Source: a virus (Duplodnaviria > Heunggongvirae > Uroviricota > Caudoviricetes). Taken from it: 32,124 nucleotides of DNA. Position 1 is the first letter of the stretch. Every line of letters starts with the position of its first letter. The notes beneath the pieces are model-generated. The model was not told the DNA's origin. It saw nothing but the letters and a program-made list of their open reading frames with translations, and did no database searches. The stretch spans positions 1-32,124 of IMG/VR virus record IMGVR_UViG_2877953467_000004. One strand, 5' to 3'. Position numbers and translations under genes: made by a program. Shown here piece after piece: positions 703-32,124 of the stretch.

Positions 703-1065
703 GGGGCTGATTCTGGATTCGACGGGATTTGCGAAACCCAAGGTGCATGCCGAGGGGCGGTTGGCCTCGTAAAAAGCCGCAAAAAATAGTCGCAAACGAC
801 GAAAACTACGCTTTAGCAGCTTAATAACCTGCTTAGAGCCCTCTCTCCCTAGCCTCCGCTCTTAGGACGGGGATCAAGAGAGGTCAAACCCAAAAGAGAT
901 CGCGTGGAAGCCCTGCCTGGGGTTGAAGCGTTAAAACTTAATCAGGCTAGTTTGTTAGTGGCGTGTCCGTCCGCAGCTGGCAAGCGAATGTAAAGACTGA
1001 CTAAGCATGTAGTACCGAGGATGTAGGAATTTCGGACGCGGGTTCAACTCCCGCCAGCTCCACCA
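703..1065 (+). ncRNA. ssrA: tmRNA (transfer-messenger RNA, SsrA)
   Basis: Begins GGGGCTGATTCTGGATTCGACGGG, contains the tag-reading-frame region (GCAAACGACGAAAACTACGCTTTAGCAGCTTAA) and ends with the T-arm GGTTCAACTCCCGCCAGCTCCACCA; 363 nt. Confidence 0.93.
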
Positions 1066-1188: not shown

Positions 1189-1671
1189 ATGGAAGAACTT
1201 CACTTTGTTTACATCAATGCAAATGGTCGTATCGGTGTTCACTCTATACAGAGCATCAGTTATAGCGAAAATCATATACAGGGCATTTGTAAGAACACCG
1301 ATCGAATAAAAACCTTCCGAAAAGACCGCATTCTTAAACAGTACGATTCACCAGAACAAGCCATTCAGGAGTGCGCGTCATTCCTCCCCGAAAACTACTC
1401 ACATCTCACCAAGCAGTCTGGTCCGAAAAAAAATACATTCGATGTATGTTTCACCGGATTTAAGAAAGCAGATAAAGAAAGATTGGTTGATAAGGCGAAT
1501 GAACAAGGATTAACGGTAAGAACCTCTGTAACCCAAAGCCTTCAGATGCTCTGTTGCGGTTACAATGCAGGCCCATCAAAAGTATCGGCAGCCCGGATGA
1601 AAGGCACAATCATCATAGATGAGCCTGGCTTTATACATTTTCTTGAAACGGGTGAGATCCCAGATGAATAA
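1189..1671 (+). CDS. Small two-domain protein with C-terminal BRCT-like domain; prophage cargo (moron) candidate
   Basis: 160-aa ORF with good RBS; C-terminal half (DVCFTGF...GPSKVSAARMKGTIIIDEPGFIHFLETGE) matches the BRCT pattern of NAD-ligase-type BRCT domains; visibly A+T-richer than neighbouring phage core genes. Confidence 0.7.
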   Translation: MEELHFVYINANGRIGVHSIQSISYSENHIQGICKNTDRIKTFRKDRILKQYDSPEQAIQECASFLPENYSHLTKQSGPKKNTFDVCFTGFKKADKERLVDKANEQGLTVRTSVTQSLQMLCCGYNAGPSKVSAARMKGTIIIDEPGFIHFLETGEIPDE

Positions 1672-7649: not shown

Positions 7650-8822
7650 TTACGCGCTGACCTGGCTGGCGAAATTCACCAGGTACTGATCGGTGATGCG
7701 CTGGCGCAGCATCAGATTTTCAAGTGGCGGCACTGGCGTGTAGTCGTAGTCGATGGTGAGTTTTCCGGCTTTAAGCGTGTCTTTGTCGTTCACCGACTCG
7801 TCCAGCCAGCAATCACCACCAATGAGATAGCCCTGACTGACCAGGCTGCGCATTTTGGCGCGGATACCTTCGATAATGTCGCGGGCCAGCGACGGGTTCA
7901 GCGGTTTGTCCACCGCCCACATGTGTGCTTCTGCCATCGTGTCCGTCAGCACCTGCGCCGTGCGGGTGTAGTTTTCGAAAGCAAAAAGCGGATCATCGCT
8001 CAGACAGCGGGAACCCCAGAAGCGGAAACCATCCTTGCGCACAAGCGTGGTGACGTCGTTCTGGTTCAGCAGACCTGCATCGGTTGCCGGGTCCTGCAGA
8101 TCCCAGAACACATCAGCAGAAATTCCGGTGACACCGTTCACGCCCACGTTGGACAGGCTTTTGTGCCATCCGGTCTGCTCATCAATTTTGGCGCGCAGAC
8201 CGAGCGCACGGGCGGTGGCATAAGCCGTTGCTTCGGCATTCAGCACCGTGTCCCAGCCAGTAAAGTCGGGCCAGATCAGCATTCCTTCACGCTGACTGAA
8301 GTTTTCACGGTAAGTGATTGCTTCCTGCACCGTCTTGCAACCATACGCTGACAGGTAAGCAAACCCACGCAGGCTTTGCGCCACGCTCAGCAACTCAGTA
8401 GCTACCGCCTTCGTGTCGTGACCTGGCACGCCGAGAATGCGCGGTTTAACGCCGAGCTGTGACTGGGCAGATAACAGGGCTTTCATGCCTGTTTTTTTAC
8501 CTTCAGCAGTCACTGCGCCGATGATATTGGTCGTGGTTTCTTCTTCCGTTTCACCCTGCGGCACACGCACAACAACGGTCACGGGTTTTGCCTGGTCAGC
8601 GATGGCATCCAGCGAACGGGCCAGCGTGCCGGACTCACCCGCTTTACCGCTGGCAGTCAGCACATCAGTGATCAGCACGGGTTTATTAAGAGGAAACATT
8701 TTTGCATCGGCATCATCGCCCGTGCAGACCATACCCACGATGGCGGTGCTCACCGTGGTAATGGATCGGGTGCCTTCGTTAACTTCAACAACGCGCACCC
8801 CGTGGTGGTAATCCTGAGCCAT
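7650..8822 (-). CDS. FI: Contractile tail sheath protein FI
   Basis: 390-aa ORF, first gene of the tail operon, good RBS. Confidence 0.9.
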
Positions 8823-23016: not shown

Positions 23017-23051
23017 CATACTCATAACATCAAAACCCGACCAACTCTCAC

Positions 23052-23087
23052 AACGCCTCAGCAGCATTCTGCGGGGCGTTTCTTTTT
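23052..23087 (+). terminator. Putative intrinsic terminator downstream of Q
   Basis: GC-rich imperfect hairpin followed by TCTTTTT. Confidence 0.3.
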
Positions 23088-23177
23088 GCCCTGAATCTCC
23101 CCCCCCCTCCACTAAATGAGGCCGCCAGCGGGCCAGAGGCTGTGCCGGATTTTGGCCATTTTACCCCGTTGCGCGCG

Positions 23178-23196
23178 CTCGTATCCCCGCCACGCC
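23178..23196. other. Candidate cos cohesive-end site
   Basis: Reverse complement reads GGCGTGGCGGGGATACGAG, resembling the 19-nt cohesive ends of P2/186 as I recall them (GGCG(A/T)GGCGGGGAAAGCA-); correct position between Q and the early region. Confidence 0.35.
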
Positions 23197-23245
23197 TGCC
23201 CGCTTTGTGTAGTGGTTTTCATGCACCTGCATGACATAAGCAAAA

Positions 23246-23267
23246 GCCCGCCAGTTCTGGCGGGCCT
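23246..23267 (-). terminator. Hairpin terminator downstream of the tum/dinI operon
   Basis: Perfect 9-bp stem GCCCGCCAG-ttct-CTGGCGGGC followed by a short T-run on the - strand. Confidence 0.4.
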
Positions 23268-23399
23268 GAGCAAAAACGATCCTCAAACGATCATGCGATT
23301 TCATGCGGCATAGACATGCACAACAGCACTAACGCCTCGCGTGGCTCGTTGTTCAACCTTGCGGACGGTAAAAACCAGTTTTATCGTCCGCAACGTTCG

Positions 23400-29390: not shown

Positions 29391-29491
29391 CACAAAAATA
29401 CGATCTCGTTATTGGATTGTCAAATGGAGAGTTCATCTTGAAGATTAGTACAGGTGCAAATACGGGAGGGAGAGAGACCATCAAAAGGCTG

Positions 29492-30067
29492 ATGACAGCC
29501 TATGGTTTCAACACTCAGATAGCGTTGGTTGAACACCTCGAAGCATCAAAAAGCACCATGGCAAACAGGATGTTACGTGATAGCTTCCCTGCTGACTGGG
29601 TTATTCAATGTGCCCTTGAAACAGGTATTTCTCTTCTTTGGCTGACAACGGGCCAAGGGGAAATGTATCCTCAAACAGAAGAAAAAAATAAGTTCAAAAA
29701 CGAGAGTTCACCTATAGTTCGCCCCCTTTCAAAGATAGTTATCCCATCAGTAAGGCAGGCAACCATTGAGAACGGAACGCTCGAAGAGATGGGGGATGTT
29801 TTCCTTGATCAGACTTTGATACCCGGAAAAGCCGAATATTGTTTGTACGTCAAAGCTAACGACGGCAATTACATTGTTGATACATCAACAAAACAGCTTA
29901 GTAACGGAATTTGGCTCATAGACATCGACGGTATGAAAAACATCGTCAAAATTGCGCGCATACCTGGAAACAAAATAGTAGTTAACCAAGATGACACTTC
30001 ATTTGAATGTTCTGTAGATGATGTGGAAGTCGTAGGACGTGCAGTCAAAGTAATCAAGAACCTCTAA
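29492..30067 (+). CDS. cI: Immunity repressor CI (186-type)
   Basis: N-terminal HTH (FNTQIALVEHLEASKSTMANRM); ATG at 29492 gives 191 aa, close to the 192-aa size of 186 CI as I recall it; immediately upstream of int. Confidence 0.8.
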   Translation: MTAYGFNTQIALVEHLEASKSTMANRMLRDSFPADWVIQCALETGISLLWLTTGQGEMYPQTEEKNKFKNESSPIVRPLSKIVIPSVRQATIENGTLEEMGDVFLDQTLIPGKAEYCLYVKANDGNYIVDTSTKQLSNGIWLIDIDGMKNIVKIARIPGNKIVVNQDDTSFECSVDDVEVVGRAVKVIKNL

Positions 30068-30070
30068 CTT

Positions 30071-31090
30071 ATGACCATCAGAAAACAGCCGAACGGAAAA
30101 TGGTTGTGTGAGTGCTATCCCAATGGACGCAATGGTAAGCGCGTGCGTAAGCAATTTGCTACCAAAGGCGAAGCTATTGCATTTGAAAGCTTCACAATGG
30201 AAGAAGTGAACAAAAAACCATGGCTGGGGGAAAAGGAAGATCGGCGACATTTATCAGAATTAATTGAGCTGTGGTATTCCCTGTATGGTCAAACACTCAC
30301 AGACCCCAAGCGCCTCATGGCGAAACTTAGTATTATCTGTAATGGTCTAGGCGATCCCATCGCTTCAGAACTGACAGCCGGTGACTTTACGAAATACCGC
30401 GAAGCACGGTTAAAAGGTGAAGTACGAAATGAAGATGGCACGCTTATGTCGCCCGTTAAGCCCCGCACGGTAAACCTTGAACAGCGCAATCTATCATCTG
30501 TTTTTGGTACACTGAAAAAGCTGGGCCACTGGTCAGCCCCCAACCCGCTTGCCGGGCTGCCAACATTTAAAATTGCTGAGAGTGAATTGGCGTTCCTGAC
30601 CCCGGAAGAAATTAAACGTCTGCTGGATGCCTGTGCTGATTCTCAAAACTCTAGTCTGCTGACGGTTGCAAAAATATGTCTGGCCACCGGCGCGAGATGG
30701 AGTGAAGCCGAAAACCTGCAGGGCCATCAATTATCAAAATACCGGATCACCTACACCAAAACTAAAGGCAAGAAAAACCGAACCGTACCGATATCTCAGG
30801 AGCTATATGAAGAACTCCCCAAAAACAGAGGGAAACTATTCACGCCCTGCAGAAAAGCTTTTGAGCGCGCAGTAAAACGAGCCGGTATAGACCTGCCTGA
30901 AGGCCAGTGCACACACGTGTTGCGCCATACATTCGCCAGTCACTTCATGATGAATGGCGGAAACATATTGGTACTACGCGATATTCTTGGTCACTCTGAT
31001 ATAAAAATGACGATGGTTTATGCTCATTTTTCGCCAGATCATTTAGAAGATGCTGTAACAAAAAATCCACTGGCTATGTTGGGATACTGA
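30071..31090 (+). CDS. int: Tyrosine integrase (P2/186 family)
   Basis: 339-aa ORF with the catalytic-box pattern R...HxxRH...Y (HVLRHTFASH...VYAHF). Confidence 0.93.
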   Translation: MTIRKQPNGKWLCECYPNGRNGKRVRKQFATKGEAIAFESFTMEEVNKKPWLGEKEDRRHLSELIELWYSLYGQTLTDPKRLMAKLSIICNGLGDPIASELTAGDFTKYREARLKGEVRNEDGTLMSPVKPRTVNLEQRNLSSVFGTLKKLGHWSAPNPLAGLPTFKIAESELAFLTPEEIKRLLDACADSQNSSLLTVAKICLATGARWSEAENLQGHQLSKYRITYTKTKGKKNRTVPISQELYEELPKNRGKLFTPCRKAFERAVKRAGIDLPEGQCTHVLRHTFASHFMMNGGNILVLRDILGHSDIKMTMVYAHFSPDHLEDAVTKNPLAMLGY

Positions 31091-31092
31091 TA

Positions 31093-32124
31093 ATGGAAAA
31101 AAGCATTAGCACATTTATGTACCTATCCGTTTTATTAGGTTGTATATTCTTATTTATAAAATATCGACTTTATGTTCTCGATCATAGAAGCCTGTTCCAA
31201 CAACCCTTGTTCTGGGCTGCAATAGGCCTACCTTTATTCACCAGCCTTTACTTTGGTTCTTTTGTCTGGATAGATAAAATACACTCTTTTAGTCTTACAA
31301 GTCACGGTTATGAGAGATTTTTAGATATCTCGAAATTACCATTACTCATCCTTGCATCTGCAGTACCTTTAGTTTCAATAGTAAACAACCTACACAGAAC
31401 CAAACAAACAGAAAAACAGATCTCAGAGGCAGAAAGGAAAAACAGGGTAGATTTATATTACAACCACATGAAATTTCATCTTGATTTATATAAAAAAATC
31501 GAAGGAAAAAGAATAGGCAGCTACTACCCGGTTCAGGAAGCTCAAGCTGAAGCAATCTACCAACATTTTATAAAACATCCACAAGAACTATATAGAAAAG
31601 CATACCCACAATCTACGCCTGATGATTCTCAACAATTAGATATTAATGAGCAATTTGTTATTGATTTACACAAATGTTGGGTAGAAATCAACGCAAGACT
31701 CAAGCAATTATCCGAGAGTGAAAATCAAATACATCCTACAGAGGAACTTTGCACAACAAAGATGAGAATATTTGTAGGAGTTATGATTATTTATGAAAAA
31801 ACTTGTAAACTGTTGTGTTTAGGTGGATTTCATTATAAAAAGTCATTTGTAATAAATGATAGTTATAATAAATACCAAGTTTATTCACCATTTTATGATT
31901 TTGGCACTCTGTACGAATCACTGCAATCCTTAGAAGAGATAACCTACGCCTTCTTGGATACTTGCAGAAATGAAGTGGTAAACTTGTACTTCCCTATAGA
32001 AGATAAAATTTTGATATATGGTGAAGGGATTCTAGAGAATTGGTTCAAGTATTCTCAGTTCTTGATCACTATAGCTTATCAACCCGCCAAGATGTCTCGC
32101 TTACCCCAGCTGAGACGCGATTGA
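31093..32124 (+). CDS. A+T-rich membrane-anchored protein of unknown function; prophage-end cargo candidate
   Basis: 343-aa ORF starting 2 nt after the int stop; three predicted N-terminal TM helices then a helical soluble domain; abrupt drop in G+C at the int stop. Confidence 0.65.
   Translation: MEKSISTFMYLSVLLGCIFLFIKYRLYVLDHRSLFQQPLFWAAIGLPLFTSLYFGSFVWIDKIHSFSLTSHGYERFLDISKLPLLILASAVPLVSIVNNLHRTKQTEKQISEAERKNRVDLYYNHMKFHLDLYKKIEGKRIGSYYPVQEAQAEAIYQHFIKHPQELYRKAYPQSTPDDSQQLDINEQFVIDLHKCWVEINARLKQLSESENQIHPTEELCTTKMRIFVGVMIIYEKTCKLLCLGGFHYKKSFVINDSYNKYQVYSPFYDFGTLYESLQSLEEITYAFLDTCRNEVVNLYFPIEDKILIYGEGILENWFKYSQFLITIAYQPAKMSRLPQLRRD

Follow-up and report, generated by a model that had tools for sequence, protein, structure and literature searches.

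A variable cargo slot between the integrase gene and the attachment site of Fels-2/186-like prophages and the membrane-protein family that most often fills it

Directly behind the integrase gene (int) at one end of the IMG/VR virus record IMGVR_UViG_2877953467_000004 lies an A+T-rich gene for a membrane protein, and the question it raises is whether this gene belongs to the prophage and, if so, what it does there. The window analyzed here is the whole stretch of 32,124 nucleotides (nt), positions 1 to 32,124 of that record. It is a piece of the Escherichia coli chromosome, with smpB (1-483), ssrA, and then a P2-family prophage of the Fels-2/186 type. An earlier reading made from the sequence alone (the sequence-only reading) had pointed to a 343-amino-acid (aa) open reading frame (ORF) as a candidate single-gene defence or exclusion module inserted between int and the attachment (att) site. 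This gene is designated as X, and its homologues as family X. X is a real, conserved accessory gene (moron) of the prophage, the position behind int is a hotspot of presence/absence and replacement, and family X is its commonest cargo. The function proposed for X rests on this context. The relevant features of the locus are the following:

31093..32124, plus strand: cargo gene X, an ORF with an ATG start for a 343-aa inner-membrane protein (WP_001676483.1, PHROG 17460)
31088..31095, plus strand: junction of the int stop and the X start, TGA-TA-ATG, read from the sequence
30071..31090, plus strand: tyrosine integrase of the P2/186 type (Pfam Int_N, 3.6e-29; Phage_integrase, 7.1e-25)
29417..30067, plus strand: CI repressor, first gene of the co-oriented cI-int-X block (Pfam Phage_CI_repr, 1.5e-28; Phage_CI_C, 2.1e-30)
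703..1065, plus strand: intact ssrA (transfer-messenger RNA, tmRNA), the integration target, at the other end of the prophage (ARAGORN, tag ANDENYALAA)
1021..1065, plus strand: 45-bp att core, ATGTAGGAATTTCGGACGCGGGTTCAACTCCCGCCAGCTCCACCA, the 3' end of ssrA, a direct repeat of L001 8842-8886
1114-1121, 1125-1132, and 1154-1161, no strand assigned: three TGGCGRCA repeats, putative Int arm-type sites of the other att arm (sequence match)

Only the two nucleotides TA separate the int stop TGA (31088-31090) from the ATG of X at 31093 on the same strand, as the sequence-only reading had reported. The stop codon of X, TGA, is the last codon of the window and ends on its final base. The G+C content is 34.2% in X, 46.8% in int, 42.2% in cI, and 53.5% in the remaining prophage, and in a sliding window it drops from 0.49 to 0.31-0.36 near 30950-31100; the abrupt shift to A+T-rich composition that had been noticed at the ORF is thus real. 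The description of the gene as fused onto int does not hold, because X adjoins int and, judged from the junction, is probably translationally coupled to it. Stop codons are estimated from the base composition at about 0.07 per codon, so the chance of an open frame of 343 codons is about 1e-11. The dN/dS of X ranges from 0.04 to 0.13, being 0.11 for the comparison with a 97%-identical allele and 0.04-0.07 for those with alleles of about 80% identity, and the two halves of the gene have similar values. X is under purifying selection. The identical protein is present on at least 1000 contigs.

The cI-int-X segment is found at 99.3-100% identity in 20 of 5426 complete E. coli genomes, and in the 20 identical genomes X is labelled as a hypothetical protein. 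L001 is one of them, and its position 8725 corresponds to window position 32124. The second copy of the att core (L001 8842-8886) is 117-161 bp past the window end, that is, 117 bp after the X stop. This puts X within the prophage, with int on one side and the att core on the other, as in the sequence-only reading; the core is downstream of the ORF and not between int and the ORF. Four further E. coli prophages, as well as Fels-2, share the conserved arm of about 115 bp that runs from the X stop to the core. Two further TGGCGRCA repeats are found past the window at L001 8729-8736 and 8740-8747, starting 4 nt after the X stop. The window contains 11 matches to TGGCGRCA against 3.7 expected, and the repeats in the two arms are putative Int arm-type sites. 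The linkage of X to int extends beyond these genomes. A family member follows an int homologue in 63 of the 67 viral contigs recovered with the family profile, mostly with a gap of -4, -1, +1, or +2 nt, and the G+C content of the family in viral contigs is 26-36% versus 40-51% for int. The same arrangement of int and X was also found in contigs from Enterobacter and another genome.

The slot between int and the arm is sharply delimited. On the left, the prophages cease to be homologous some 20 nt ahead of the int stop, behind the codons for ...AVTKNPL. On the right, the conserved arm begins; in Fels-2, where the slot is without cargo, it does so 5 nt after the int stop. These limits of homology confine the variable segment to the stretch between the last few codons of int and the first of the arm repeats. 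The prophage flanks are 88-93% identical while the X alleles share less than 40% amino-acid identity, a pattern of cassette-like replacement. The 80 viral contigs whose int homologues are closest (75-100% identity) were surveyed, and the slot could be resolved in 58. Family X occupies 24 of these 58 loci and other cargo 20, and the slot is empty in 14, so that the comparison of presence and absence in related prophages proposed by the sequence-only reading revealed a polymorphic position. The cargo other than X is as follows, with counts that include some loci where the arm was not found:

family of about 400 aa: 19 loci
membrane protein of 207-222 aa: 4 loci
family of 503-521 aa: 3 loci
pair resembling dCTP deaminase and ThyX (by eye): 1 locus

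The family of about 400 aa is the second commonest cargo of the slot and occurs alone or downstream of X. It corresponds to the "putative RES protein" of phage Cartapus, which shares 49% identity with the second gene at the locus of strain C2, and a protein of the same size holds the same position in RE-2010. The family showed no PADLOC or NCBIfam match, and the Pfam RES domain was matched at only E 0.052; it is another defence candidate. Examples are located at L003 6370-7563, L082 4141-5346, L081 3641-4846, and, among IMG/VR contigs, L096 6025-7212. The 516-aa slot protein of Klebsiella phage ST437-OXA245phi4.1 belongs to the antiphage family GapS1 (NF047931, E 1.7e-117, above the cut-off); GAPS1 was described previously (10.1101/2023.03.28.534373). 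The 503-521-aa family in viral contigs is assumed to be GapS1, judged by size and position alone. At one locus, an AbiTii gene (E 4e-31) lies directly behind an X member. With GapS1 and AbiTii found in it, the int-att position also holds recognized anti-phage genes, in line with what had been expected from the sequence. The two-gene cargo was found at L106 6044-7611, where a dCTP-deaminase-like protein with a C-terminal membrane helix is accompanied by a ThyX-like protein with an RHRxxS motif, both likenesses being judged by eye; a PADLOC search with this cargo gave nothing.

The boundary of the slot with the arm has left traces in the cargo genes. In many X members, the reading frame runs on into the first arm-type repeats, so that the protein ends in an arm-encoded tail, G-[GD]-T-L-A-A-E-[HRQ] followed by the stop (L002 6229-6255, L003 6289-6315, L004 5701-5727, and the IMG/VR loci with an arm offset of -27). 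Such tails are shared by unrelated cargo, namely the 222-aa membrane protein at L090 and a 317-aa protein at L099. Unlike these read-in members, X of the window ends 3 nt ahead of the arm repeats. A recombination scar was recognized in L168 (Logan contig SRR31312990_5824; 6040-6130 and 7330-7481). There, an X member ending in the arm-repeat sequence GGCGACACTTTAGCGGCAGAGCAT is joined directly to a remnant of the int 3' end, TTAGAAGATGTAGTTACTAAAAACCC..., encoding LEDVVTKNPLFNL and a stop, and a RES-like gene of 403 aa, the real arm, and the core follow. In sequence, the arm repeats are similar to the codons of int for ...HxxPEHLED. This arrangement suggests that cassettes are stacked when the arm recombines with the 3' end of int.

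The hotspot itself has been noted before, while family X has not. A 2026 preprint independently describes the int-att position as a minor defence hotspot of P2, with 3% of the P2 systems (10.64898/2026.02.27.708500), and the third P2 hotspot, between a tail gene and cI, was reported in 10.1101/2024.10.15.618418. In the literature, neither the accession WP_001676483.1 nor PHROG 17460 is mentioned in any paper found. The slot resembles the P2-like hotspots (old/tin, Z/fun, and the minor int-att one) in being a variable position between conserved flanks that holds alternative, often A+T-rich defence genes. It differs from them in that its commonest cargo, family X, is not recognized by the defence HMM (hidden Markov model) sets searched, and in that its limits are unusually tight, set by the final ~20 nt of int and the foremost Int arm-type repeat. 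The old/tin hotspot of the present prophage, from the portal gene to the DinI-like gene (23017-23399), is essentially empty. In E. coli WP3-S18-ESBL-09 (L167 9317-12937), cI-int-X is identical, but old/tin holds a 433-aa hypothetical protein and the retron Ec67 reverse transcriptase/endonuclease; the two hotspots thus vary independently. One genome with an X member behind int has a further gene, of 309 aa and without a Pfam match, between cI and int (L011 4070-4999). This arrangement recalls the cI-int hotspot of K139-like Vibrio phages (Rousset et al. 2022).

The conserved part of the family is its N-terminal module. The post-int genes of the E. coli prophages in ECCNB20-2 (353 aa), C2 (375 aa), and ACN001 (309 aa) are homologues of X (BLASTP, E 1e-35 to 1e-41), and most of the genes that look different behind int in related E. 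coli prophages belong to family X as divergent members. BLASTP alignments between X alleles cover mainly the first ~200 residues, and the one with the ACN001 allele reaches about residue 293. Three parts of the gene can be distinguished:

31093..31497, plus strand: conserved N-terminal module (aa 1-135) with transmembrane helix 1 (TM1), a cytoplasmic loop, the TM2-TM3 hairpin, and a juxtamembrane stalk helix (alignments, AlphaFold2)
31381..31473, plus strand: coding region of the signature motif (aa 97-127), VNNLHRTKQTEKQISEAERKNRVDLYYNHMK (alignments of 40 and 88 members)
31498..32121, plus strand: divergent alpha/beta domain (aa 136-343), predicted to be cytoplasmic (AlphaFold2, few conserved columns)

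The signature, N-x-HRT-x-QTE-x-QI...KN..D....H.K, is near-invariant and juxtamembrane. N99, H101, R102, T103, Q105, T106, E107, K108, Q109, I110, K116, N117, and D120 are invariant in an alignment of 40 sequences, which also contains conserved prolines and glycines within the membrane helices. Among 88 diverse members, H101 and Q105 remain invariant, and R102, T103, T106, Q109, I110, K116, N117, D120, H125, and K127 are at least 90% conserved. Beyond about residue 135, few conserved columns are observed (P163, L166, Y167, W196, I199, C238, and D289).

The AlphaFold2 model of X, built with the 40-sequence alignment, has a pLDDT (predicted local distance difference test) of 90.2 and a pTM (predicted template modelling score) of 0.71. 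It contains helices at 2-23 and 38-61, short helices at 70-79 and 81-88, and a 46-residue helix at 90-135, in which TM3 continues as the motif-bearing stalk. These are followed by a long beta-hairpin (137-160), helices at 163-170, 186-208, 217-240, 270-290, and 294-299, and strands at 250-265 and 321-336. The three N-terminal transmembrane helices that had been read from the sequence agree with the model (2-23, 38-61, and 81-88/90-135). The same reading had described the remainder as a soluble helical domain of no assignable family; searches with X indeed returned no family of known function. The predicted fold of the domain is mixed alpha/beta and not purely helical. In a Kyte-Doolittle scan, segments 1 and 3 of X exceed 1.6, and segment 2 does so in homologues (1.84 and 2.02). 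Family members carry two, three, or four hydrophobic segments, the TM2-TM3 hairpin being constant, and all of these variants leave the C-terminal domain on the side of loop 1. On average over 88 members, loop 1 contains 3.25 lysines and arginines in 15.7 residues and loop 2 contains 2.03 in 19.1. The richness of loop 1 in these residues places the C-terminal domain in the cytoplasm in the predicted topology. The conserved residues G72 and F76 are then in the predicted periplasmic loop of the membrane hairpin.

Family X is large and is distributed over unrelated mobile elements. An exhaustive profile search of 1.84 billion representatives yielded 955 at E<=1e-3, 488 at E<=1e-10, and 197 at E<=1e-30, the 955 being clusters at 50% identity. 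A word-indexed search recovered 48 clusters, all annotated as hypothetical and with enterobacterial names wherever a source was named. The PHROG profile phrog_17460, of unknown function, matches X over its full length (residues 1-343 to profile 1-343, E 5.1e-203). Among phage records, megablast of X found no match and tblastn only 5 records, and the X alleles are too divergent for counting at the DNA level in E. coli genomes. Distant members were found in the Vibrio filamentous phage (inovirus) VALG_phi6, immediately behind the LexA-like repressor gene in the Vibrio element 10N.239.312.A01_PE001, as a cassette of the V. cholerae chromosome-2 superintegron (per gene neighbourhood), next to lysis and tail genes where a Janthinobacterium prophage ends, and in a small Shewanella insertion. 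These distant members in other types of elements retain the N-terminal module, and the profile of this module also reaches Photobacterium, Pseudoalteromonas, Pseudomonas, and Thiodiazotropha. Such occurrences outside P2-type elements speak against a role tied to the life cycle of P2. From the integron of V. cholerae, the transmembrane cassette Brigantia was considered as well, by description only.

X is co-oriented with cI and int, and no consensus of a sigma-70-like promoter or an intrinsic terminator was found between int and X. Past X on the plus strand, the next terminator consensus is the native one of ssrA, and a weaker match (6 pairs, 3 of them G-C) is located within X at 31213-31230. 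In phage 186, cI and int are read from the lysogenic promoter. With a promoter of this type in front of cI-int, X would be made at a low level in lysogens, and it is probably the last gene of a cI-int-X transcript.

We give about an even chance to the reading that X is a lysogeny-expressed single-protein phage-exclusion or abortive-infection factor. Both the role against phages and the assignment of sensor and effector parts are inferred from the context and architecture described above. X would be expressed from the lysogenic cI-int-X transcript and sit in the inner membrane. The divergent cytoplasmic domain would be the specificity part, recognizing a component of the phage or a signal of infection, and the conserved membrane hairpin with the HRT-x-QTE...KN..D....H.K motif would be the effector. 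The membrane module would then compromise the membrane or block a membrane step, and the infection would be aborted or excluded, which would protect the lysogen, and hence the prophage, from other phages. A wider form of this proposal is tentative and distinctly less probable: that family X is a new, widespread class of membrane-anchored single-protein immune sensor-effectors, with the two-transmembrane (2TM) hairpin and HRT-x-QTE as a new kind of effector, which P2-family prophages carry as their preferred cargo at int-attP and which is also spread by inoviruses, other prophages, and integron cassettes.

Known systems share parts of this design. In the rexAB system of phage lambda, RexB is the membrane component of abortive infection and is encoded in the cI operon. 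Like RexB, X is a predicted polytopic inner-membrane protein, probably encoded in the transcription unit of the repressor, and would thus be present in lysogens. In contrast to RexB, to which it shows no similarity in sequence or fold, X has no separate sensor partner in the window and carries its own large cytoplasmic domain. The 2TM effectors of CBASS and retron Ec48 resemble X in the conserved two-helix membrane hairpin as a putative effector, whereas X adds the HRT-x-QTE stalk motif and a fused domain of about 200 aa. GapS1, the RES-like family, and AbiTii occupy the same slot in the same orientation, tight against int and with similar A+T richness, but they are unrelated to X, and BLASTP between X and the RES-like protein was non-significant.

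Several observations weigh against an anti-phage role. X has no significant match in Pfam (a copy without PF28197), PADLOC 2023 (0 families at E<=10), or NCBIfam 2026. The same three libraries gave nothing consistent for X, the E. coli alleles, and the sets of 40 and 88 members, and the PADLOC matches over the 88 members are scattered, with E>4e-5. PF28197, precomputed on three distant members, is the only Pfam trace of the family. Profile searches of PDB sequences with two family alignments had best E-values of 0.51 and 0.35, to coiled-coil or membrane noise, and a structure search with the AlphaFold2 model found no fold match in PDB or BFVD; the predicted fold is apparently new. With neither a model match nor a fold match, nothing identifies the effector chemistry. 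Weak matches to 2TM effectors were seen for PDLC00691 (E 8e-5, the ACN001 allele), 2TM_IV (E 4.4e-5, 1 of 88 members), and retron_Ec48_2TM (E 0.006, 16.2 bits versus a cut-off of 65, a distant Vibrio homologue only). They are single and far below threshold and could be explained by the composition of membrane helices. Neither a cyclase nor a reverse transcriptase is found next to X, the neighbours of which are int and attP. Residence in a hotspot is weak evidence of function; morons unrelated to defence are found in such slots, too. Selection on the C-terminal domain within a subtype is purifying and not diversifying, and positive selection on this domain was accordingly rejected.

Other explanations share some of this evidence. 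Superinfection exclusion, a constitutive inner-membrane block to phage genome entry without cell killing as by P22 SieA, T4 Imm, and HK97 gp15, would suit a protein of the inner membrane that is encoded in a prophage cargo slot, is placed for expression from the lysogenic operon, and has as its conserved part a membrane hairpin with a periplasmic loop (G72 and F76). We consider it rather unlikely for X, the large domain of which is predicted to be cytoplasmic and which at 343 aa is much larger than the injection blockers generally known; X also shows no homology to annotated superinfection-exclusion (Sie) PHROGs, and its PHROG matches are all of unknown function. A non-defence accessory role, such as lysogenic conversion of the envelope, maintenance of or addiction to the prophage, or modulation of induction, would agree with the lack of a defence-family match, with the non-defence cargo of hotspots and integron cassettes, and with the tight coupling to int, which could reflect a role linked to lysogeny. 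Yet about a quarter of the related phages do without a gene here, others have recognized defence genes instead, and the family is also found in mobile elements without a P2-type int; this role is accordingly given a low probability.

A membrane-anchored RNase of the HEPN type, with a cytoplasmic helical core that cleaves RNA on activation, was suggested by sub-threshold Pfam matches to HEPN_RiboL-PSP in 3 of 40 members (best in P0016, residues 92-241, E 2e-5, 25.1 bits versus 28.4) and to HEPN_Apea in one member (E 0.14). X itself has no Pfam HEPN match, no R-x4-6-H pair occurs among the invariant or at least 90% conserved columns of the 40- and 88-member alignments, and the HEPN four-helix fold was not detected by the structure search. 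The HEPN identity is thus rejected for want of the motif and of matches above threshold, and this explanation is disfavoured as very improbable. PD-T7-4, which "often overlaps an integrase" (Vassallo et al.), was likewise ruled out as an identity of X; it is a 220-aa Zn-finger-HEPN protein of another family. The abrupt shift in composition could by itself suggest that the ORF lies outside the prophage, as unrelated host DNA or a chance frame, with an att site between int and the ORF. This is refuted, and its probability is practically nil: the att core is 117 bp downstream of X, the conserved attP arm follows the X stop, X travels with int in the viral contigs (63/67), and it is under purifying selection.

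If X does act against phages, PADLOC 2023 and NCBIfam 2026 both miss the family that most often fills a hotspot of very common enterobacterial prophages, and prophage-borne immunity would be under-counted in E. coli, Salmonella, Klebsiella, Enterobacter, and Vibrio. The fixed membrane module combined with very diverse cytoplasmic domains (955 clusters) would constitute a natural domain-swap series on the coupling of sensor and effector. The tight anatomy of the slot and the one recombination scar suggest how cassettes may be swapped and stacked.

The genes cI, labelled by PGAP as "phage repressor protein CI", and int are on the plus strand, and the early region on the minus strand comprises Apl/Rha-like, CII, a Fil remnant, DUF5347, DUF2732, TraR/DksA, Dam, and a replication endonuclease. 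At the X end, the RefSeq/PGAP annotation includes a 177-nt "ssrA tmRNA" (L001 8710-8886) that overlaps the last 16 nt of X. This annotation was rejected as a marginal Infernal match (52 bits, gathering threshold (GA) 47), in which only the final 45 nt, the att core, are ssrA sequence. Past the window, a CP4-57-like second integrase island (L001 9052-10281) directly follows this displaced ssrA 3' end; ssrA thus bears a tandem array of elements in these strains. At the opposite end, just inside the other att junction, a 160-aa ORF lies between attP and ogr (1189-1671, plus strand). It is 99% identical to gp32 of phage Cartapus, a "putative exonuclease protein", and may be conserved rather than variable cargo.

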